Shown here: piece by piece, positions 1 to 50,381 of the stretch
Layout: each line of letters starts with the position of its first letter
Position numbering within the stretch: position 1 is the first letter of the stretch
Assembly: GCA_030619865.1 (NCBI GenBank)
Contig: JAUXAP010000003.1
Coordinates: 135-64,134, forward strand
Direction: 5' to 3'
DNA length: 64,000 nt
Source of the DNA: Dehalococcoidia bacterium
Lineage (GTDB): Bacteria > Chloroflexota > Dehalococcoidia > Dehalococcoidales > JAUXAP01
Program-made: the position numbers and the translations under genes
Notes under the pieces: model-generated
What the model saw: only the letters and a program-made list of their open reading frames with translations
Databases searched by the model: none
Told to the model about the DNA's origin: nothing

Positions 1-215
1 CCTGACCTCACCCCAATGGGTTGGGATTGGGTGTCGAAAAGTTGGGGTGCCACCACTCCGATGTCGATAAGAGTAGTGAAAGAATTATCGACTGGCCTGG
101 CTAAACTAAGTCAGCAGAGGTTAGCCAGGTAAGATAAAAAGAGTTGACTAAGCTTGTAGTATATTCTGGACAGCTTCTTCTGGACGGGGAGTTCAACTCT
201 CCCCCGTCTCCACCA
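1..215 (+). ncRNA. ssrA: tmRNA (ssrA), 3' portion; 5' part lies upstream of the window
   Basis: 181-215 reads GGACGGGGAGTTCAACTCTCCCCCGTCTCCACCA: T-arm (GGGAG/TTCAACT/CTCCC), acceptor 3' strand and encoded CCA. No matching tRNA 5' acceptor strand or D/anticodon arms in the preceding ~80 nt, as expected for the tRNA-like domain of tmRNA. No credible ORF in 1-190. Confidence 0.7.
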
Positions 216-1773
216 GAAACACGGACGAGTCTTGAAAAGGCTCGTTGATGATATAAATCTTAGACCCGGTACGGGCCGCCGCCACCCTGAAGATTGGTCT
301 GAAGAGTGGTTTTGGTTTTATGGCAACAATCGATTTCATCTTCTTCGCATCGACATATACCGCATCCAGCATGGAGAGAAGGAATTTTCTTCTCTCTTCC
401 TGATTAGCCTTGGTCCACAACATTGGCAGGTCAAGAATAAGCTTCCCAGCTTCTTCCGCAGCATCGGCTTGAGGTACTATCAGGGATTCAAGTTCCATTT
501 CCAATAGCTTCTTTTTCCGGTAGTACTCCCCGTCAGGGAAAACTCCGTCAATATATGCCTTTGCCATCCGGCGAAGTTTTTCTTGTGCGTTTTGTCGCTT
601 CCTGCTTATCGTCTCAACTTCATCCTTCAGGCTAATAATAGTCATTACCTCTTCTAACCATCGGGGTCCTAACTCAATAGCTTCAATCAAACCGGTAATC
701 TGATTATCAATGATAGAACAGGTAATTGAACCACCACCAGAGCATATGCCATGACTTCTTGAGGCTTTATGCTCTCGGTAGAAAGGTCTGCCGCTCTTAT
801 AAGTCTGCGCCCACATGGGCATTCCGCAGTAGGCACACCTCACTATTCCTTTGAGCAGGTAATACCTTTCCGGGCGAACCTGAAGGGTCTCAGACCGTCC
901 ACTGTTCTTCTTCAGCGTAATCTGCACAGTCTCATAAATATCCGCACTAACCAGTAGTTCATGAAGTCCAGGGAAAAGCTTCCCCCGATGGGTTATTTTT
1001 CCTGCGTAGAAAGTATTATGTAAAATACCTCTCACGGATGCTGTGGTAAACAATCGCGGACCTGATGTTATATTACCCGCTGCATCTAGAAGCTGATGCA
1101 TGTTTCTCGTCCGGAATCCCTGTCCATTAAGCCAACCGGCAAGTTGACTGAGTGTCGTATTCCCTACGGCATATCTCTGGAATAATTCAACTACTGCACT
1201 ACCCTCTTTCGGGTGTACGTGGATCCCACCAGGATGCTCTGGTTCGCACTCTTGTTTCCGGTTACCTTTTTTACCTGTCCAGCAGGATTCATAACCGAAA
1301 GGAATACCGCCAGTATGTTTACCTTCATGGGCCCTCTGTTCCAATCCCTTACTGACGTGATTAGCCAGAGCGCCAGAGAAATATTCAGCAAATGAGCCGA
1401 TCATCTGGGTAAACAGCTTGCCCTGAGGCGTGGTGTAATCTATCTTTTCGGTGATGGATACCAGCGATACATTGTGTTTAGCCAGGATTGATAAGGATTC
1501 CATAGTTACTTTCATGTTCCGTGACCATCTGTCCAGAGTATGAACGATAACCGCATCAAACCTGTCTTTACTGGCATCATCAAGGAGTTTTTTAAAAACA
1601 GGCCGGCGGGATATGGCCTCGACGTGGGCTGACCTGCCTTCTTCCCGGTAAACTCCAATCGGTTCCCAGTCTCTGTTCTTGCAGAGATTCTGAAATAACC
1701 GTTCCTGTGCATCCAAGGAATGCCCTTCCACCTGAGAGAGACTGGATACCCTGATGTAGGCAACGGCTCTCAT
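193..1773 (-). CDS. large serine recombinase (phage-type serine integrase)
   Basis: 526 aa. N-terminal resolvase catalytic domain (MRAVAYIRVSSLSQ), central recombinase domain, Cys-rich zinc-ribbon segment (CAYCGMPMW...C) and long helical C-terminus. Stop codon lies 23 nt inside the ssrA 3' end. Confidence 0.9.
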   Translation of the reverse strand: MRAVAYIRVSSLSQVEGHSLDAQERLFQNLCKNRDWEPIGVYREEGRSAHVEAISRRPVFKKLLDDASKDRFDAVIVHTLDRWSRNMKVTMESLSILAKHNVSLVSITEKIDYTTPQGKLFTQMIGSFAEYFSGALANHVSKGLEQRAHEGKHTGGIPFGYESCWTGKKGNRKQECEPEHPGGIHVHPKEGSAVVELFQRYAVGNTTLSQLAGWLNGQGFRTRNMHQLLDAAGNITSGPRLFTTASVRGILHNTFYAGKITHRGKLFPGLHELLVSADIYETVQITLKKNSGRSETLQVRPERYYLLKGIVRCAYCGMPMWAQTYKSGRPFYREHKASRSHGICSGGGSITCSIIDNQITGLIEAIELGPRWLEEVMTIISLKDEVETISRKRQNAQEKLRRMAKAYIDGVFPDGEYYRKKKLLEMELESLIVPQADAAEEAGKLILDLPMLWTKANQEERRKFLLSMLDAVYVDAKKMKSIVAIKPKPLFRPIFRVAAARTGSKIYIINEPFQDSSVFLVETGES

Positions 1774-1967
1774 TAATCTATTTCCTTTTCCTTCCTTAAA
1801 GCTATCGATAAGGAGATATCGGCTAGAGTTTCCAGGAATGTCTTTATCATCAGTTTATCTACCTCACTTGGTTCCGTCTCCGTTGTGGCGGACACTGTAT
1901 ACGCTTCGTGTATACCCGTCAACACGTTTTCGTCTGTTTTGGGAGAAATATTTTCCAAACCAGTCAT
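1773..1967 (-). CDS. hypothetical small protein
   Basis: 64-aa ORF whose stop overlaps the recombinase ATG by 1 nt (TAATG), suggesting coupling. No recognisable motif. Confidence 0.4.
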   Translation of the reverse strand: MTGLENISPKTDENVLTGIHEAYTVSATTETEPSEVDKLMIKTFLETLADISLSIALRKEKEID

Positions 1968-2035
1968 TTCTTCCTCTCCGAATCATTGATAAGACGAAGG
2001 AGAGTCGCGTATCCAATGTCCAGTTCCTTTGCGGC

Positions 2036-2584
2036 CTAGCTCCTTGATATATTCCCTAGCTGTAATCGCTCCAAAACTACTCCAAAACGCGGTTTGAAGC
2101 CTCGCCTATCCATTACCCTTGGTCGACCGATTTTGTGCCCCATTTTTCTCGCTCTGTCCATACCCGCCTTTACTCTTTCTCTTAAGATTCCTCTCTCCAG
2201 TTGAGCATAGGCAACGGTAATGTAATAAAGAGCTTCTCCGAAGGGAGAAGTGGTATCAAGCCAAGGTTCGGAGTAAGATCTTAGGCCAACTTTCCATGAT
2301 CTTATTCTCTCTAAGGTAGTCGCGGCATCCAGTACCGACCGAAAGGCCCGGTCCATTCTCCATACCAGAATAAGGTCGAACTTCCTGTGACTGGCGTCGT
2401 TGAGTAAATCCTTCCAGGCATACCGATGAGTAATGTCTGTCGCTGAGACGTAGTCGATATATTCCCGGAAGATTATCCCGCTGTCATGGGCATCGACGAA
2501 CTCTCGCATCGGCATGAGCTGAGTCAAAGGATTTTGCTCCTTATCCGATGTCGATACTCGGGCATAGATGCCAAACTTCGTCAA
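2036..2584 (-). CDS. small serine recombinase (resolvase/invertase family)
   Basis: 182 aa. MTKFGIYARVSTSDKEQ catalytic-Ser motif, resolvase core, GRPRV linker followed by a short C-terminal HTH-like tail. Confidence 0.85.
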   Translation of the reverse strand: MTKFGIYARVSTSDKEQNPLTQLMPMREFVDAHDSGIIFREYIDYVSATDITHRYAWKDLLNDASHRKFDLILVWRMDRAFRSVLDAATTLERIRSWKVGLRSYSEPWLDTTSPFGEALYYITVAYAQLERGILRERVKAGMDRARKMGHKIGRPRVMDRRGFKPRFGVVLERLQLGNISRS

Positions 2585-2603
2585 TTAGTACCACCTTTCA
2601 TAT

Positions 2604-3074
2604 TTATAACTTCCTCTTTTCTTCATTGATCAGTTTTATCAATTCCTGTTCACGTTCACGGCTCTTTACTATCTCTGTCCATTCATTCTGTAATTTACTG
2701 ATACGTTCAGGCAGCTGGTGAAACGTCTTTATCGTTGTCTCCAGCTTATCAATGAGTTCTTTACACGTTGCTTCTGTCTGTTCTCTTATCACTTTCAGCT
2801 GGTCGTATTCCAAAACGAATCGGCTCTTACCATGACTGATCAGTTTTTTTATATTCAGATTAGTGAAGATCAGTCCGGTAAGTGACGGTAATACCTCAAT
2901 GCCGTAATCTTTAATAGCTCTATTTGCTATCTGACCGGCAGTTGCCCGGATAATTCCTTCCAAGGCTAATGCGCAGGCAGCCTGTACTAACACCAGTTGT
3001 ATCTTCAATTCTTTAAGACCCCTGTTGGTTGAATTCCCTATAAAAATATTTAAGATGTCATCTGTTTGCTGCAT
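2604..3074 (-). CDS. hypothetical protein, helical/coiled-coil C-terminus
   Basis: 156-aa ORF in the same-strand gene train. No family recognised. Confidence 0.45.
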   Translation of the reverse strand: MQQTDDILNIFIGNSTNRGLKELKIQLVLVQAACALALEGIIRATAGQIANRAIKDYGIEVLPSLTGLIFTNLNIKKLISHGKSRFVLEYDQLKVIREQTEATCKELIDKLETTIKTFHQLPERISKLQNEWTEIVKSREREQELIKLINEEKRKL

Positions 3075-3152
3075 TTAATGTTGGTCCTCTCTTTTTCTGT
3101 ACTAGTACTACAATATATATGTGCGTTGTCGTCGTTGTTGTTGTATTCACAC

Positions 3153-3353
3153 CTACCCACTACCTATACCCGTACCCTGTAATGGCTGTTCCTCCAGTAT
3201 TTTCCTTACATAGGTCTGATCAGTAATGAATCCCCGGAAATGCCTGCCATCTTTTCCGCATACCAGCATGATGAAGAGTTTATTACTCTTCCTTCCCTTT
3301 GCTATCCTTACCGATAAGGTATTTGCACATATGGGACAGTTAATCTCCTTCAT
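3153..3353 (-). CDS. small zinc-ribbon protein
   Basis: 66 aa with CPIC...CGKDGRH. Its start overlaps the upstream ParB-like stop by 4 nt. Confidence 0.5.
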   Translation of the reverse strand: MKEINCPICANTLSVRIAKGRKSNKLFIMLVCGKDGRHFRGFITDQTYVRKILEEQPLQGTGIGSG

Positions 3354-3985
3354 TCTATTTCCTCCCTCTCTAAATAGAATTTACATAGCAGATACATTGC
3401 TGTACTCCTGGTATTAGGACTCTTAGCTTTATCATCTCTAGCTTTGGGTAGTATCCGGCTTAATGCCTCTTCCACCGTTTCGAGTTGTTTGTTAGTGAAC
3501 TGTAATACCATGTGCTTTAGCTTGGCAGCTTGCGACTGTTCCCACGCCTGCAGGTGCTCGGCCAAATCGGATTGATTGAAAGATGCCAGAGATCTCAGGC
3601 TTTCTGTTGTTTCCGGAAGGAGTGAAAGTACTTTATCTTCCGGAATAGATGCGAGGATATTCCTGAAGAGTGCTCCCTTTTGTGCCTGGTCATCTTCTCC
3701 ATGAATCCCGTTTAATGTTTGTGCCAGCAGCATCGATTCGGCATCGTTTAAATTGACTACTACACATGGAACCACACTGAATCCCATGTTCCTTATTGCC
3801 TTTAACCGGTGGTTACCGGAAAGCACCTCATAGAATGCATCATCTTTTGGCCTTACTACCAGAGGTTCCACCAAACCGTATCGGGAAAGGCTCTCGATGA
3901 GACGACTGAGTGTTATATCGTCCATATGGTTTGGATTCCAGGGGGCTTCGTTAAGTCTCTCGATCGGTAGTTCATTTACTTTCAT
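3350..3985 (-). CDS. ParB N-terminal (ParB/Srx-fold) nuclease-like domain protein
   Basis: 211 aa. N-terminal pattern PIERL...NPN...LVEPLVVRP...YEVLSGNHRLKA typical of ParBc domains. 4-nt overlap with the upstream ORF. Confidence 0.75.
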   Translation of the reverse strand: MKVNELPIERLNEAPWNPNHMDDITLSRLIESLSRYGLVEPLVVRPKDDAFYEVLSGNHRLKAIRNMGFSVVPCVVVNLNDAESMLLAQTLNGIHGEDDQAQKGALFRNILASIPEDKVLSLLPETTESLRSLASFNQSDLAEHLQAWEQSQAAKLKHMVLQFTNKQLETVEEALSRILPKARDDKAKSPNTRSTAMYLLCKFYLEREEIE

Positions 3986-4674
3986 TTCTTCTCCTTCTTC
4001 GGATACGGTAATATCTTTGTGGCCAGTCTCTTTCTGTAAGATGGATCGAGAAAATAAATATATCTGTGTTTACGCATTTGGGGCACGATTCTTACTGTTA
4101 ATCCGTAAGACTCAAGGTGTTTCAAGGAATGAGTTCCATAGGAATGGCTGAGACTCCTTGAGTGCCTTACCTTGCCGTCTCCCAAATCAAACATAGGCAT
4201 AGCTCCCGACAGTCCGGTATAAGTCCAACCGGAGGCCTGGTATATCGTACCCACGTGTCCCAGTGTTGGGTCAGCATAGGAGACGACAAATCTAACCATA
4301 GTGTTTTTCTTTAAAGCTCTTAGACAGATGGCAATTACTCTGGATTCGGAATTGGTCGGCAATTTATCAGAAAGCCAGAACCGGGTCAGTGTCAGACAAT
4401 CACTCTGGAATGCCCCCTCAATCAATCTGTACGCGTTATGCGGTCCGACTCCAAAGGTTATGGCACCCAGCAGTTTTCCATTAGTTAAAGCACCAAAAGT
4501 TAGTTTGGTGCCTCCAGGAATAGAATGCAGATAGTGGTGTTTTTCAATTAACTTTTTGGCTGCAATAAAAGGAATGGGTTGAATACGAATAGATTGGAGC
4601 GCCGTGCTGGGACTCGAACCCGCTCCTGCTTCACGGATTGAAGCTGTGCTTACTCTTACACCGACGGCGCTCAT
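3982..4674 (-). CDS. Mom-family GNAT-fold protein (putative DNA adenine modification enzyme); start uncertain
   Basis: Motif string KHHYLHS..GAITFG..LTRFW..NSESR..VSYADPTLGHVGTIYQASGWTYTG matches my recollection of Mom-like acyltransferases. The ORF is open to 4791. ATG 4674 is chosen as the nearest ATG, although family homology starts only near 4585. Confidence 0.6.
   Translation of the reverse strand: MSAVGVRVSTASIREAGAGSSPSTALQSIRIQPIPFIAAKKLIEKHHYLHSIPGGTKLTFGALTNGKLLGAITFGVGPHNAYRLIEGAFQSDCLTLTRFWLSDKLPTNSESRVIAICLRALKKNTMVRFVVSYADPTLGHVGTIYQASGWTYTGLSGAMPMFDLGDGKVRHSRSLSHSYGTHSLKHLESYGLTVRIVPQMRKHRYIYFLDPSYRKRLATKILPYPKKEKK
4596..4672 (-). ncRNA. tRNA-like element (non-canonical cloverleaf, 9-bp acceptor helix)
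   Basis: Minus strand: GAGCGCCGT CG GTGT AAGAGTAA GCAC A GCTTC AATCCGT GAAGC AGGA GCGGG TTCGAGT CCCAGC ACGGCGCTC C. Canonical T-loop and a perfect 9-bp acceptor. The anticodon loop lacks U33, the T stem has a bulged A, and there is no CCA. Confidence 0.35.
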
Positions 4675-4834
4675 TTTCCCACAACCCATTTTTTTGTTAT
4701 ACTCATTTGCGTATAGTATAAAGGCAGGTTTTTTAGTCGTGTGGGCATGTTTTCGCCATAACATAGACAGAATTACGCAAATTTCTGCCATTCTGGCTTC
4801 AATTTTTATGCGTCAATGCGGAGGGTATTGACAG

Positions 4835-5398
4835 GTGAAAAGAAACCAAGCCATAAAGTTCTGGAATGCTCTTGATGCCAGTACTAACATCAATGAGGTC
4901 ATTAGCAGTTTTGAGAATAAACATGGATATGATGGCAAACGGACGTTACAGCGATATACTCAAGCACATAAAGGATTCAGACAAGGCCTCTCCCTTCAAA
5001 ACATATCCTCTAAGACAGGATGGGGTAAATCATTTGTCGATAAACTTGAAGGATGGTGGAAAGGTGAGTTTACTCCACTAGCTAATACTCCAAGAAAAAC
5101 AAACGGTGAAGTTTTTTCAAATTCTCAAGAAAGATATTCGGAGGAATGGAACCATTACCACAAAATCAAAGAATCTATAATCAGGTTACAACATCCTTCA
5201 GGTATCAAGATAAGAGAACTTTTAGATATTATCGAGAGAGAACGCGTGACTTTAGATGATTCTAAACTTCAGAATGACTTGGATGAATTTATAGCAGCTG
5301 TACAAGAAAGTGTAGACCTCTATATGAGTATTCCACCAATCACGCAAGTAATTAATCGAACAAGTAGACGTATGAACAAGCGGTATCCAAGAAAATAG
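4835..5398 (+). CDS. hypothetical protein (possible HTH segment LSLQNISSKTGWGKSFVDKL)
   Basis: 187-aa ORF with a GTG start 9 nt after GGAGGG. Divergent from the minus-strand operon. Confidence 0.5.
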   Translation: MKRNQAIKFWNALDASTNINEVISSFENKHGYDGKRTLQRYTQAHKGFRQGLSLQNISSKTGWGKSFVDKLEGWWKGEFTPLANTPRKTNGEVFSNSQERYSEEWNHYHKIKESIIRLQHPSGIKIRELLDIIERERVTLDDSKLQNDLDEFIAAVQESVDLYMSIPPITQVINRTSRRMNKRYPRK

Positions 5399-5604
5399 TA
5401 CTCATCTTGATTGAATGTCAAATCCATACTTTTCATTCTTAGCTTTCACTTTCTCCAAAAGGGTTATGTCTTGTTGACATTTAATTATGGGTATATAATC
5501 ACCTTAACTAAAAAGACTTCCTTCTGGAAGTTCCAGTATAATCGTTCCCTTTTTAAGAGCTTGTTAACGATTGTACCTGAAGGTATAATTACTGGTAAGA
5601 CAAC

Positions 5605-6111: not shown

Positions 6112-6522
6112 CTAAATATTTAGGGTAGTATTAATGAATCTGATGATAAAGACAAACCCTGAAAATACCCACAAGATACTCTGACTTTTAATCAGGGTGT
6201 CACAGGTTCGAGACCTGTACGGCCTACTCTCAATCCCCTCTAACTCTTCTAACGAATGTCTAACCAATGCTTTCTCGTCCTGTTTTTGTGATGCTTTCTC
6301 TAACATCAAATCCATCGTATCCGCCGGGGCCCGTAGATCGCCCTCCCAGTGATTGTAGACGGTGAGGGTCACCATTTCACTGGCATGTCCAAGCACTCGG
6401 CTGATAACTTCTATCGGCTGTCCGGCTTTACGCTGCAGTGTGGCGTAGGTGTGCCGTAAGTCGTGTAGACGGATAGGCTTTAGCCCTGTATTCTGGACAA
6501 CCCTCTTAAAAACCTTGGCCAT
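6112..6522 (-). pseudogene. tyrosine recombinase/integrase, C-terminal catalytic fragment only
   Basis: Begins ...IRLHDLRHTYATL...VLGHAS...TVYNHW (R, HxxR and Y motifs) but lacks the ~200-aa N-terminal part. The frame runs on through the tRNA-Lys fragment. Confidence 0.7.
6180..6226 (+). other. tRNA-Lys(UUU) 3' fragment (anticodon arm to discriminator)
   Basis: TCTGA CTTTTAA TCAGG GTGTC ACAGG TTCGAGA CCTGT ACGGCCT A. No D arm and no 5' acceptor strand upstream. Confidence 0.6.
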
Positions 6523-6558: not shown

Positions 6559-7060
6559 TTTCGTACCCGGCCCTACCGCTAAGCCCGATTACAGCTGAGG
6601 CTTTCCGCACGGGAGGGGGGAGAGGAACATTTAAGCTGGTGGGCTAGAATAAATCCCCCAACGCCCTGGTTTCCCCCGACAGGACCAGCCTACAGTCTAG
6701 TTTTTACATCTATGCTACCTAGAAAAGCCGAAGGGCTCAAAGACACACCCACACTTTGGCTCTGAGCCCTTTTATTTGACTTATCTTCAGAATTGCTTTA
6801 GAATAGAAACAATTAGAAAATATCGTTACTTTTCACTCCCAGGAAAGGCCTGCCCCAACAGGTCTTTCCTTATTTAACCTTCTTTTGTTCCCTTTCAATC
6901 TTCTCGTCTATTGTCTCCTCAAGCCACTCTCCCAACGTCTTTTTTGAACGCAGGGCTTCTACCCGAGCTTTGTGGGGAGTGTCTGAATTTATCTTCATAT
7001 TGCGGAGCTTTCTAATAGGCTTTTCATTCAGCAGACTTACCACAGTTTATATAGGTACTC

Positions 7061-11076: not shown

Positions 11077-12513
11077 ATGGGATTAAAAGGCTATGTAGTT
11101 AAACGCCCACTGGATATATTAACCGAGGAGGAAGTTAAGAGGATTCATTATGGGACTCTGGAGGTCATGGCGAAAACAGGAGTGGTGTTTCATCACAAAA
11201 AGGCGCTAGAGATTTTGGGTGATGCCGGTTGCGATGTGGATAGGGAGAAAGAACTGGTAAGGTTCCCCAACTATTTGGTTGAGGAATCGTTAAGAAAATG
11301 CCCCAGAAGAGTCCTTCTGAAAGGAATGACCCCGGAATATGATGTAGCAGTCGGTGACCCTTATGTGCATTTTGCCAGTTGTATTGCTATGGATACCCTG
11401 GATTTAGAGACTATGGACCGGAAGATACCAACGATGCAAGACCACATTAACATGGCCAAGGTTCTAGACTATTTAGATGAAGTTCATTTGCATTATGGAC
11501 AATATGTGCGTGCAGAAGGTGTTGCTGATATGTGTATACACCCACAGAGGTTCAATATAACAGTTAAACACGCATTGAAGCCCTCCATCACGGCCGGAGT
11601 GTTTGGCAACGAGGTATGGTTGATAAAAATGGCACAAGTCGTTGGTCAAAATCCGGCAGGGCACGCCCAGTGCTCGCCTCCACTGACATGGTCTACAGAC
11701 AAAATCGACTGTATGCTTCATTATATAGACGCCGGCTTCCCTATATTGCCGGGTACAGGTCTGGCAACAGGAATGACCAGTCCGGTGACTCTAGCCGGGG
11801 CATTAGTACAACAACAAGCCGAAATTTTATCTGGGATAGTCCTAGCCCAAACCGTCAAACCCGGGATTGGTGTCATCGTTAAAGGCCGCATAGAGCCAGC
11901 AGATATGAGAACCGGTATGATTGCTGAGGGTGGTGTGGAAAAGGTAATTGCCGATGCCGCCTGGAATCAAATCTGGCGCTGGTACCAAGTCCCCCGATGG
12001 CATACAGTTGTATCGACTGACTCAAAAGTCCCCGATTATCAATGTGGAATGGAAAAAGCACTACATTTCCTCTTGTCGGCTTTGACTGGCTCCAACATAA
12101 TTGCCGGCATTGGCGGAGTATATGATGAAATTACTGTTTCCCCCGTTGTTGCCATAATGGATAACGAACTAGCTCGCCGGATTGGCAAAATGATCGACGG
12201 GGTAAATGTAAACGAGGAAACTTTGGCCGTCGATTTGATTAACAAAGTAGGTCCGATCCCAGGTCAATTTCTCAGCACAGAACACACCAGGAAATTGTGG
12301 AAGTCGGAGCTGCTCATACCTGCTCTTGCTGATAGAATGGGCTATTCTGAATGGGTGGGGGGAGGCAAAAAAACTTCCCTTGATTATGCCAAGGAAAAAT
12401 ACGAGGAGATAATAGCTACCTATAATCCTTCCCCTTTGTCCGAAGATAAAGAGAAGGCAATAGACGAGATTATGGAAGAAGCCAGAAAGTTCTATAAGAG
12501 TAAAGAGTCGTAA
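11077..12513 (+). CDS. MttB-superfamily methyltransferase without pyrrolysine codon
   Basis: 478-aa uninterrupted ORF with trimethylamine-methyltransferase-family length and sequence character. Sits directly downstream of the corrinoid protein. Confidence 0.75.
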   Translation: MGLKGYVVKRPLDILTEEEVKRIHYGTLEVMAKTGVVFHHKKALEILGDAGCDVDREKELVRFPNYLVEESLRKCPRRVLLKGMTPEYDVAVGDPYVHFASCIAMDTLDLETMDRKIPTMQDHINMAKVLDYLDEVHLHYGQYVRAEGVADMCIHPQRFNITVKHALKPSITAGVFGNEVWLIKMAQVVGQNPAGHAQCSPPLTWSTDKIDCMLHYIDAGFPILPGTGLATGMTSPVTLAGALVQQQAEILSGIVLAQTVKPGIGVIVKGRIEPADMRTGMIAEGGVEKVIADAAWNQIWRWYQVPRWHTVVSTDSKVPDYQCGMEKALHFLLSALTGSNIIAGIGGVYDEITVSPVVAIMDNELARRIGKMIDGVNVNEETLAVDLINKVGPIPGQFLSTEHTRKLWKSELLIPALADRMGYSEWVGGGKKTSLDYAKEKYEEIIATYNPSPLSEDKEKAIDEIMEEARKFYKSKES

Positions 12514-48753: not shown

Positions 48754-48829
<76 letters not shown>

Positions 48830-48838
48830 ATAAAATAG

Positions 48839-48913
48839 GCGGAAGTGGCTCAGCGGTAGAGCATCTCCTTGCCAAGGAGAGGGTCACGAGTTCGAATCTC
48901 GTCTTCCGCTCCA
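48839..48913 (+). tRNA. tRNA-Gly(GCC)
   Basis: GCGGAAG..TCTCC TTGCCAA GGAGA..ACGAG TTCGAAT CTCGT CTTCCGC T CCA. Confidence 0.95.
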
Positions 48914-49001
48914 GCCGAAGTGGCGGAATGGTAGACGCGGCAGTCTCAAAAACTGTTGGAGGGCAACCTCCATGTCGGTTCGAGTCCGACCTTCGGCACC
49001 A
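48914..49001 (+). tRNA. tRNA-Leu(CAA)
   Basis: Class II tRNA with the long variable arm TGGAGGGCAACCTCCAT and anticodon loop CTCAAAA. Starts directly after the CCA of tRNA-Gly. Confidence 0.95.
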
Positions 49002-49010
49002 AGACTAAAA

Positions 49011-49084
49011 TGCCGAGTTGTGTAGTGGTAGCACGGGGGACTTTGGATCCCTTAGCCCTGGTTCGAATCCAGGCTCGGCAGCCA
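49011..49084 (+). tRNA. tRNA-Gln(UUG)
   Basis: TGCCGAG..GGGGA CTTTGGA TCCCT..CCTGG TTCGAAT CCAGG CTCGGCA G CCA. Confidence 0.9.
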
Positions 49085-49128
49085 GCAAACTACATAGCAG
49101 TTGCTATCGGCAAATAAGGAGGTAGCCG

Positions 49129-50241
49129 ATGACCCCACAACAGTTTCCGCTAATTTCGGTCAAGGGCAAGCCCTTTGAGTGTGGTCGGCAGCACGGTTCC
49201 CAAGCTCGGAAGCAAATACGCCAAAATGTAGACCTTTACTTTGACCTCTGGCAACAACTGTGGGGAGCCAAGCGCCCCCAAGTTTTAGAGCAATGCCAAG
49301 GTTTTATCACTGCCATCGGGGAATATGACGCCGATATCCTGGAGGAGCTGGAAGGGATAGCCAAAGGGGCGGATTTATCCCTCGAGGAAATCATAGCTCT
49401 GAACACCAGATATGAGCTAAGCCGGGTAAGAAGCTCAACTTCTCAGTCGACAAGTGATGGCTGCACCGCTATGGCTGCCCTGCCCCAGGTTACCAAAGAC
49501 GGTCATACCATCATGGGGCAGAACTGGGATTTCAAGCCCAGGTTCTATGAGACGGGCATAATCCTGGAGGTAGAACAAGAAGCCAAGCCGAACCTGATTG
49601 TCCACACCGAAGCCGGCACTATATGCCACAAGGGTATGAATTCAGCAGGGGTGGGGGTATGCCTCAATGGCCTGGCATCAAATTTGGATAGATTCGAGCC
49701 GAGGACGCCCATTCTTATTATGATGCGGGGTATCCTCAATGCAAACAGCTTTGACCAAGCACTAAAGGCAGTCCTTGGTACCAGAGCCACCGTTTCCGCA
49801 AACCTCCTCATCGCCCACCGGGATGGCGAAGCTGTTAACCTGGAGATTATCCCAGAGGATGTAGACTGCCTGTATCCGGATAACGGCATCATTACTCATA
49901 GCAATCACTTTCTGGGCTTCACCAACCGGAAAGACTTGATAGATATCGTCAAGTCATCTTCCCCCGATACCCTATTCCGTGCCAACCGGGCACGACAACT
50001 TCTAGAGTTGGACCGTGGTCACATTGATGTTGGCAGCTTCCAGCGGGTGTTTAAGGACCACTTCAGCTATCCAAATTCCATTTGCCGTCATGTAGATGTT
50101 CAGAGAAAGGAACCACAGCAGGGAGCTACTTTGGCCTCAGCAATAATAGACATGACGGAGCAAACCTTCTATTTCACTAAGGGTCCTCCCTGCCAGAATG
50201 AGTACTACAAGCTGCTGCCGCCGTGCCTGCTCAAAGACTGA
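49129..50241 (+). CDS. peptidase C45 / acyl-CoA:6-APA acyltransferase-like Ntn hydrolase
   Basis: 370 aa. Self-processing-type DGCTAMAAL motif and family-typical length. Confidence 0.7.
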   Translation: MTPQQFPLISVKGKPFECGRQHGSQARKQIRQNVDLYFDLWQQLWGAKRPQVLEQCQGFITAIGEYDADILEELEGIAKGADLSLEEIIALNTRYELSRVRSSTSQSTSDGCTAMAALPQVTKDGHTIMGQNWDFKPRFYETGIILEVEQEAKPNLIVHTEAGTICHKGMNSAGVGVCLNGLASNLDRFEPRTPILIMMRGILNANSFDQALKAVLGTRATVSANLLIAHRDGEAVNLEIIPEDVDCLYPDNGIITHSNHFLGFTNRKDLIDIVKSSSPDTLFRANRARQLLELDRGHIDVGSFQRVFKDHFSYPNSICRHVDVQRKEPQQGATLASAIIDMTEQTFYFTKGPPCQNEYYKLLPPCLLKD

Positions 50242-50305
50242 TACAGGCCATTACTTCCCTTGTCATTCAACAGAGGAGAGGTTATAATTTCTGATGGTTG
50301 CCTCA

Positions 50306-50381
50306 TTCCTCGGTAGCTCAATGGTAGAGCGGGCGGCTGTTAACCGCTAGGTTGTAGGTTCGAGCCCTACCCGGGGAGCCA
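50306..50381 (+). tRNA. tRNA-Asn(GUU)-like with 8-nt anticodon loop CTGTTTAA
   Basis: All four arms are canonical and CCA is encoded, but the stem GGCGG/CCGCT encloses 8 nt. The gene is 76 nt where this architecture predicts 75. Confidence 0.8.

Follow-up and report, generated by a model that had tools for sequence, protein, structure and literature searches.

A non-decoding tRNA-Gly-like element conserved in the 5' end of a Mom-family gene of Dehalococcoidia, a candidate glycyl carrier for Mom

The locus described here raises the question of why the beginning of a protein-coding gene should have the sequence and the fold of a tRNA. The gene encodes a member of the Mom family and lies on the minus strand of a 64,000-nucleotide stretch of a Dehalococcoidia bacterium genome (GenBank assembly GCA_030619865.1, contig JAUXAP010000003.1, positions 135 to 64,134 of the forward strand), which was analysed over its full length and is termed the window below. 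An original prediction, made from the sequence alone, had noticed a tRNA-like cloverleaf at the start of the gene and had offered two explanations for it, namely a decayed captured tRNA or attachment-site (att) remnant now read as an N-terminal extension, or a functional tRNA-like processing signal with translation starting beyond it. The explanation that we favour, with moderate confidence, is a different one: the element would be a conserved, non-decoding paralogue of tRNA-Gly, placed in the 5' end of the Mom-family gene and acting as a dedicated glycyl carrier for Mom. The gene, the element and its parts are as follows.

3982–4674, minus strand: Mom-family open reading frame (ORF), 230 residues from ATG 4674 (Mom core 3997–4590; 269 residues from ATG 4791)
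4672–4674, minus strand: ATG start codon, 4 nucleotides before G1 of the element; further in-frame ATGs at 4689–4687 and 4791–4789
4595–4670, minus strand: tRNA-Gly-like RNA, 76 nucleotides (G1 = 4670, A76 = 4595), within codons 2–27 of the Mom-like ORF
4664–4670, minus strand: acceptor stem, 5' strand GCGCCGT, partner of 4599–4605
4646–4661, minus strand: D arm, stem GTGT/GCAC, loop AAGAGTAA; GG is absent from the D loop in the window copy
4628–4644, minus strand: anticodon-like arm, stem GCTTC/GAAGC, loop AATCCGT (4639–4633), with T34, C35 and C36 at 4637–4635
4606–4623, minus strand: T arm GCGGG-TTCGAGT-CCC(A)GC, with a bulged A at 4608 and the T loop GGTTCGAGTCC
4595–4605, minus strand: acceptor 3' strand ACGGCGC (4605–4599), discriminator U73 (4598) and encoded CCA (4597–4595)

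The minus-strand sequence 4672–4596 quoted in the original prediction is exact, and the cloverleaf drawn from it is real. It is the minimum-free-energy fold of the element (−32.7 kcal/mol, z = −4.0; 0 of 200 shuffled sequences folded as well), it persists on folding with 191 nucleotides of context, and it has a variable region of 4 nucleotides. The boundaries of the element had to be redrawn. In 46 aligned homologues the conserved acceptor stem has 7 base pairs (4670–4664 with 4605–4599) instead of the 9 first described; the two extra pairs of the window copy are made with U73 and C74 by the last base of the ATG and the A after it (4672–4671), and are confined to loci where ‘ATGA’ abuts G1. 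The element starts at G 4670, 4 nucleotides past the A of ATG 4674, and not at the G of that codon, and it ends with C74-C75-A76 (4597–4595), the CCA that had been reported as not encoded. The tRNA genes of the window host likewise encode CCA, and the 3' end of the host tRNA-Gly(GCC), CGCTCCA, is the same as that of the element. Besides the CCA, the first reading missed the glycine identity of the element and its functional link to Mom, an enzyme that uses Gly-tRNA-Gly. An 8-bp inverted repeat bracketing the element (ATGGGTTG / CAACCCAT; 4689–4682 with 4575–4568, minus strand) forms an outer helix in the 191-nucleotide fold; its upstream arm is absent in other loci and it was treated as chance.

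The alignment was built from genomic loci encoding Mom, 80 in all (60 close and 20 distant), in about 50 of which the element was located upstream of Mom. The 46 aligned copies have a median pairwise identity of 63%, and the unit that they conserve consists of the 7-bp acceptor stem, then U73, then CCA. Standard pairs fill 98.4% of the stem cells, as against 75% in shuffles, and both partners have changed in 17 of the 21 pairs; covariation scores 0.59, versus 0.15 for shuffles and about 0.1 with slid partners. The same cloverleaf was obtained independently with RNAalifold. Acceptor pairs 4–7 covary freely, the D stem (helix 2) is paired in 99.5% of cells, all five pairs of the anticodon-like stem covary, and four of the five T-stem pairs have changes on both sides. 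The single bulged A in the T stem, correctly noted in the window copy from the outset, is kept in 45 of 46 copies; C56 is invariant, and the D-loop GG is found in 32 of 46 homologues. Thus the structure is under selection. Entropy at codon positions 1, 2 and 3 is 0.50, 0.70 and 0.80 within the element, compared with 0.99, 0.65 and 1.66 over the first 40 codons of Mom, so that codon periodicity, strong in Mom, is nearly absent from the element.

The bacterial glycine identity set comprises U73, G1-C72, C2-G71, G3-C70, C35 and C36 (PMC9976931, Table 1). Every member of this set recognised by bacterial glycyl-tRNA synthetase (GlyRS) is present in the window copy, and the family conserves the same set: G1-C72 in 44/46, C2-G71 in 45/45, G3-C70 in 45/45, U73 in 45/46, C35 in 46/46 and C36 in 44/46, followed at the 3' end by C74 (45/46), C75 (44/46) and A76 (41/46). 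C35 falls on a third-codon position of the Mom frame, yet it is invariant. Since the positions kept are exactly those of the experimentally defined bacterial glycine identity set, the element has glycine identity.

Features needed for decoding are treated differently. Decoding had already been called doubtful for the window copy, which has A33 in place of U33; in the family, U33 occurs in just 14 of the 46 copies, position 34 holds any base, and the anticodon-like loop has 7 nucleotides in 26 copies, 8 in 19 and 9 in one. Measured against a canonical tRNA (U33, a 7-nucleotide anticodon loop, a regular 5-bp T stem), the window copy departs by A33 and its bulged T stem, and the family by the counts just given. 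Judged by its sequence, the element is not a decoding tRNA, as U33 is mostly missing, base 34 is free, the loops span 7–9 nucleotides, the T stem is bulged and the Rfam tRNA score is low.

The window copy escapes standard RNA detectors. ARAGORN made no call at the element while finding five ordinary tRNAs elsewhere in the window, and with Rfam at gathering thresholds nothing was found at the element, the matches elsewhere including the same five tRNAs and the 3' part of a transfer-messenger RNA (tmRNA) at 1–215. The Rfam tRNA model scored below 15 bits at the window copy versus 60–73 bits at the genuine window tRNAs. These form a cluster (Phe, Gly-GCC, Leu, Gln and Asn; 48754–50381, plus strand), all with encoded CCA, and its tRNA-Gly served as an internal control: a covariance model of the element (R1) scored 86 bits at the window copy, the single such copy in the window, and 53.6 bits at this genuine tRNA-Gly. 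Recognition of the tRNA shape by standard programs, one of the checks that had been suggested for the cloverleaf, therefore failed for the window copy and succeeded for part of the family: nine homologous copies were labelled tRNA-Gly (UCC, CCC or GCC) by ARAGORN and others ‘tRNA-???’ with 2- or 4-base anticodons, and 3 of 11 copies tested passed the Rfam tRNA threshold, at 33–39 bits. Under relaxed thresholds the best Rfam match at the element was tRNA-Sec (15.1 bits, E = 3.1). This sole match and the 9-bp helix had suggested a tRNA-Sec or other 9/4-type tRNA. We rejected this candidate, for which a UCA anticodon, a long variable arm, 8/5 acceptor/T geometry and a score above 47 bits are required: the long variable arm is absent, the triplet is TCC and not TCA, and the homologues have a 7-bp stem.

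As first proposed, the element stands in frame with, and directly upstream of, the region where Mom homology starts. The Mom family model (Pfam PF25680) matched with 210 bits against a cut-off of 27.1, its position 2 aligning to I68 of the 269-residue ORF, so that homology starts two codons past the 3' end of the element; the structure of phage Mu Mom (PDB 8bv8) matched residues 27–226 of the 230-residue protein (E = 1.8e-19). The N-terminal extension of Mom includes SAVGVRVSTASIR…, and 26 of its residues are encoded by the element. A 100% identical protein (P0001) is annotated from ATG 4689. Comparison of homologue N-termini showed that the extension is shared: 2261 protein homologues at E ≤ 1e-5 (from Dehalococcoides, Dehalogenimonas and other Chloroflexota), about 230–235 residues long, carry the same one.

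The Mom frame is kept open through the element. Stops inside the element were found in the Mom frame of 2 of 50 genome loci, compared with 27 and 26 of 50 in the other two frames; of 1 of 65 metagenome loci among the matches listed, compared with 50 and 41 of 65; and of 1 of 41 viral loci, compared with 30 and 27 of 41. Some two dozen loci have an ATG 4–9 nucleotides ahead of G1, in many cases accompanied by a strong Shine-Dalgarno sequence, and the ‘ATGA/GCGCC’ junction of the window recurs in about ten others. No conserved start codon was found after the element, the codon for residue 68 being ATT, ATC, CTT, CTG or TTA across loci. ATT 4590 or 4584, proposed earlier as the true start, was consequently rejected: the codon there is not conserved as start-like.

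The two genome loci with a stop in the Mom frame, L045 and L047, are alike in their tRNA-like and flanking sequences. In both, the element (4639–4713) resembles tRNA-Gly(GCC), has a canonical U33 and lacks CCA; after it come TAAAGGTAAGCC and then an ATG that belongs to Mom. At these two loci the element forms a gene of its own upstream of Mom, which has a Shine-Dalgarno sequence and a start codon to itself. Two further loci show other arrangements. In L014 (element at 1821–1896) an in-frame stop lies 10 nucleotides before G1 and no ATG, GTG or TTG occurs before the Mom core; this mom gene without a canonical start is either a pseudogene or has an unusual start. L019 has tandem copies upstream of Mom (774–849 and 877–948), of which the first is intact (78 bits, called tRNA-Gly CCC) and the second, abutting Mom, is decayed (30 bits).

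How tightly the element is tied to Mom was seen from both sides of the association. Among the close genomic loci, the best of which encodes a Mom 74% identical to that of the window, 51 of 60 have the element at the 5' end of mom. Five of the 20 distant loci have a homologous copy at the 3' end instead (L065 1393–1468, L080 6614–6689, L066 4080–4155, L070 6611–6686 and L068 6568–6642), as has a viral locus (L086 2612–2680); the Mom homologues of these six are distant ones, at 28–34% identity. The 3'-type copies have the same T arm with its bulged A and begin 1–7 nucleotides beyond the PYPK motif at the C-terminus of Mom; the mom ORF continues through them to a stop 6–60 nucleotides further on. 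The L080 locus is a prophage and has a terminase gene close by.

Searches were also made with the RNA alone, using a 26-nucleotide motif that cannot match ordinary tRNAs because it has 13 rather than 12 nucleotides between the T loop and U73. In metagenomes a same-strand Mom was adjacent in at least 106 of 120 loci among the matches listed (directly downstream in 63, directly upstream in 28, partial on the same strand in 13 and found by hidden Markov model (HMM) in 2). On IMG/VR viral contigs Mom was adjacent in 106 of 114 loci, directly downstream in 63 and directly upstream in 43. In 3'-type loci the stop codon of mom lies beyond the element in 25 of 27 metagenome cases, among the matches listed, and in 35 of 36 viral ones. 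No Mom was found by tblastn or HMM in the flanks of L122, L141, L182, L185, L197 and L212 (metagenome) or of L259, L272, L296, L314, L326, L331 and L333 (viral); these copies may partner with a very divergent Mom or with another enzyme. The converse search of viral contigs, starting from Mom, returned distant homologues only, 1 of 19 with the element, and was far less informative than the search starting from the RNA. In all, the element ranges from Dehalococcoidia to Acetobacteraceae, Acidobacteriota and phages.

What a glycine-identity tRNA might do beside this enzyme is suggested by the chemistry of Mu Mom, which moves glycine from Gly-tRNA-Gly to N6-adenine, where a rearrangement on the base gives N6-carbamoylmethyl-adenine (Silva et al. 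2026, Nat Commun 17:4787; PMC13219725). All three E. coli tRNA-Gly isoacceptors work with Mu Mom, Gly-tRNA-Ala does not, and recognition of the tRNA is thought to be at the acceptor end; residues required include R111, S124, D149 and R151, along with H58, Y59 and Y159 (PMC13219725). Formation of N6-carbamoylmethyl-adenine with Gly-tRNA-Gly was shown there just for Mu Mom and two metagenomic homologues, and linked or embedded tRNAs or tRNA-like elements are not mentioned (PMC13219725). The window Mom is identical at the residues aligned to Mu H58, Y59, R111, S124, D149 and Y159; Mu R151 aligns to T (ADPT versus ADER). An AlphaFold2 model of the 230-residue protein, made from a 28-sequence alignment, was unusable (mean predicted local distance difference test score 36).

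According to the carrier model, the mom transcript would double as a tRNA precursor. The 76-nucleotide cloverleaf would be freed by ordinary tRNA processing, with a cut by RNase P at G1 and trimming of the 3' side back to the encoded CCA, and would then be loaded with glycine by the host GlyRS. Mom made from the same transcript would take the glycyl group from the element to modify N6 of adenine in double-stranded DNA. Because it has no decoding features and an irregular T stem, the element would probably be kept out of translation, which would leave Mom a glycyl pool of its own. Since translation reads the same stretch as the 26-residue extension, excision and translation of one transcript would be mutually exclusive.

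A possible extension of this model, put forward tentatively, is that the mom transcript is bifunctional by design, being both translated through the tRNA sequence and a precursor of a glycine-accepting tRNA excluded from the ribosome, with the position inside the ORF itself under selection. It is based on the location of the element, which is 5' in some clades and 3' in others, with the frame open in more than 95% of about 200 distinct copies. An RNase P cut would decapitate a 5'-type message and strip the stop codon from a 3'-type one, and such a switch between translation and processing would both cap the amount of a dangerous enzyme that modifies DNA and provide its co-substrate.

Several observations weigh against the carrier model. 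Neither ARAGORN nor Rfam recognised the window copy, and R151, essential in Mu, is not conserved in the clade of the window Mom. Mu Mom works with ordinary host tRNA-Gly, and a private tRNA is accordingly not a chemical requirement. Excision at G1 would take the Shine-Dalgarno sequence and the AUG off the mom message, which makes the near-universal embedding in the ORF puzzling. The CCA is missing from a few copies (L029, L040, L045, L049–51 and L055). Finally, the bulged T stem, the 8-nucleotide loops and, in the window copy, the D loop without GG might hinder RNase P, CCA-related enzymes or GlyRS.

The main rival is a cis-acting tRNA mimic, which we consider rather unlikely. The cloverleaf would stay in the mom mRNA as an operator, bound by Mom, GlyRS or RNase P, and would limit translation or stability of a potentially toxic modifier without ever being aminoacylated. 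There are parallels for this, as the thrS leader of E. coli is a tRNA-mimic translational operator and mom of Mu is controlled by Com; the first offers a structured RNA where translation of a gene for a tRNA-binding product starts, the second tight control of a toxic Mom. The 5'-type arrangement would suit an operator well, with a start codon 4–9 nucleotides ahead of a −33 kcal/mol structure and, in the window, the G of the AUG paired into the helix; so would the recognition of tRNA-Gly by Mom and the near-universal embedding in the ORF. However, mimics of the thrS type are partial (an anticodon arm) and never charged, whereas the window element is a complete cloverleaf with CCA. An operator should overlap the initiation region everywhere, which is true in the window, but in at least 28 metagenomic and 43 viral loci the element is at the 3' end of mom, where it could not mask initiation, and in L045 and L047 it is a separate upstream gene. 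The invariant C35/C36 and the conserved CCA are features for GlyRS and for the 3' end, and are not needed for binding by Mom. A second, improbable rival is a pure processing signal, at which cuts by RNase P and 3'-end enzymes would serve solely for maturation or inactivation of the mom message, the freed RNA having no function. The tRNA shape, the G1 and a 3' end resembling CCA would fit, and tRNA-shaped punctuation is known elsewhere; the invariant C35/C36 and the full glycine identity set would be left unexplained, no conserved start codon lies past the element, and the frame is kept open through it. The processing alternative of the original prediction was, in spirit, right in taking the element as functional and tRNA-like, although too narrow, and fails in its start at ATT 4590 or 4584.

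That the element is an ordinary, if odd, decoding tRNA-Gly on a mobile element, supplementing host translation as many phage tRNAs do, is very unlikely. The nine tRNA-Gly calls by ARAGORN and the three copies above the Rfam threshold speak for it. Against them stand the missing U33 (32/46), the loops of 8–9 nucleotides (20/46), the free base 34, the conserved T-stem bulge, and the adjacency of Mom in 88–93% of motif matches (for metagenomes at least this share, among the matches listed), which is not expected of a tRNA serving codon usage. Scarcely credible is the other alternative of the original prediction, the decayed captured tRNA or att remnant that would now just encode an N-terminal extension, even though tRNA finders miss the window copy and islands of this class integrate at an RNA gene. 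It is excluded by the covariation, with compensatory changes in 17 of 21 pairs across phyla at 63% median identity. Also against it, the element shows almost no codon periodicity, is 4.4 kb away from the integration site, occurs inside prophages next to terminase genes, and has no similarity to the tmRNA 3' end.

The integration site is the tmRNA gene (ssrA) at the left end of the window, from which the minus-strand genes of the integration module, of the kind known from ssrA genomic islands of Dehalococcoides (McMurdie et al. 2011; PMC3146451), extend to mom:

1–215, plus strand: tmRNA gene (ssrA), 3' part (Rfam RF00023, 78.7 bits, model positions 151–374), the island integration site
193–1773, minus strand: large serine recombinase, DsiB-like, 526 residues (Pfam Resolvase, Recombinase, Zn_ribbon_recom)
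2036–2584, minus strand: small resolvase, DsiA-like, 182 residues (by Pfam)
2604–3074, minus strand: 156-residue protein
3153–3353, minus strand: 66-residue ORF with a CPIC…C motif, between the ~150-residue gene and parB; no Pfam match, and not among the six module genes of McMurdie et al. 2011
3350–3985, minus strand: ParB_N-domain gene adjoining mom (Pfam ParB_N, E = 9.9e-14)
4835–5398, plus strand: divergent 187-residue ORF upstream of mom, no Pfam match

Between the ssrA 3' end and the element there are about 4.4 kb (215 to 4595), and in 19 homologous loci a tmRNA gene is found about 2.5–5 kb downstream of the end of mom. A comparison of 1–215 with 4595–4670 revealed no similarity, and the idea that the element duplicates the tmRNA 3' end or is an att repeat was rejected. 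The large serine recombinase ORF runs, with its 23 stop-proximal nucleotides, into the 3' end of the tmRNA gene, which lies on the other strand; an attL embedded in dsiB in the same way was described by McMurdie et al. 2011 (PMC3146451). No second copy of the ssrA 3' end (attR) was found in the 64-kb window at up to 3 mismatches. A truncated tyrosine-integrase ORF (6112–6522, minus strand) retains only the C-terminal part of the Phage_integrase domain, and about 80 nucleotides upstream of it a 23-nucleotide stretch (6602–6624, plus strand) is 74% complementary to the tmRNA 3' end (197–219); the two may be debris of another integration event. A promoter and terminator scan of 3900–5500, uninformative as a whole, showed no minus-strand promoter-like site upstream of mom, and its only ‘terminator’ was the anticodon arm read on the plus strand. 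Farther away, an Rfam match to PYLIS_3, the pyrrolysine insertion element of mttB (12013–12112, plus strand; 45.5 bits, gathering score 38), lies inside an uninterrupted 478-residue ORF (11077–12513) with no in-frame TAG. It is probably a non-pyrrolysine gene of the MttB family, matched through coding similarity.

The feature adds one member to a class known since 2011, and the observation as such had been published before: McMurdie et al. (2011, BMC Genomics 12:287; PMC3146451) reported a tRNA-Gly-like ‘pseudo-tRNA’ embedded in a mom homologue of the ssrA islands of Dehalococcoides, and proposed no function for it. Their locus and the window share a 76-nucleotide tRNA-Gly-like cloverleaf in the first ~150 bp of the Mom homologue, a spacing of about 4.4 kb between it and the 3' end of ssrA, the anticodon ‘DCC’ (TCC at 4637–4635 in the window), and the reverse-strand gene order of large serine recombinase, small resolvase, ~150-residue protein, ParB and Mom. 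The window differs in belonging to another lineage of Dehalococcoidia and in lacking the sixth module gene upstream of mom (about 700 residues, with an RNA-polymerase/primase-like domain). Absent from the 2011 description are the glycine identity set with CCA, the constraint on the open frame, copies embedded at the 3' end, and the occurrence in phages and in other phyla.

With phage Mu the window shares the enzyme family (PF25680) and a co-substrate tRNA of glycine identity (PMC13219725; PDB 8bv8). The difference, apart from R151, is that Mu encodes no tRNA and scavenges that of its host, whereas the window gene itself holds a look-alike of tRNA-Gly. A closer functional likeness is found in staphylococci, where non-proteogenic tRNA-Gly species serve Fem transferases of the GNAT fold and evade EF-Tu through determinants in the D and T arms (PMC7826273). 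In S. aureus (FmhB/FemA/FemB; PMC7826273), as proposed here, glycine-charged tRNAs poorly used by EF-Tu and the ribosome are reserved for a GNAT-fold transferase; for the window element both charging and evasion of EF-Tu are conjectural. The tRNAs of staphylococci differ in that they feed peptidoglycan synthesis, stand alone as genes on the chromosome and have normal anticodon loops; no homology of lineage links them to the element.

To judge by the literature that could be searched, three points are new, namely the proposed functional link, the position embedded at the 3' end and the broad occurrence in phages; no paper was found there that joins the tRNA-like locus embedded in mom with the use of Gly-tRNA-Gly by Mom. 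The likely function could be inferred only after the Mom biochemistry of 2023–2026, because the source of the glycine, charged tRNA-Gly, was settled then. As regards annotation, standard tRNA finders miss or mislabel the class and gene callers silently translate the element. Hundreds of mom genes in phages and genomic islands with their own non-decoding tRNA of glycine identity corroborate the chemistry of Mom from genomes alone. Many Mom systems may thus bring a private glycyl donor and spare the translational pool of the host, which, if true, would be the second natural case in which a GNAT-fold transferase has a tRNA reserved for it, the staphylococcal Fem tRNAs being the first. It would also offer an explanation for the ‘pseudo-tRNA’ reported in 2011 from Dehalococcoides, in the islands by which vinyl-chloride reductase genes are spread.

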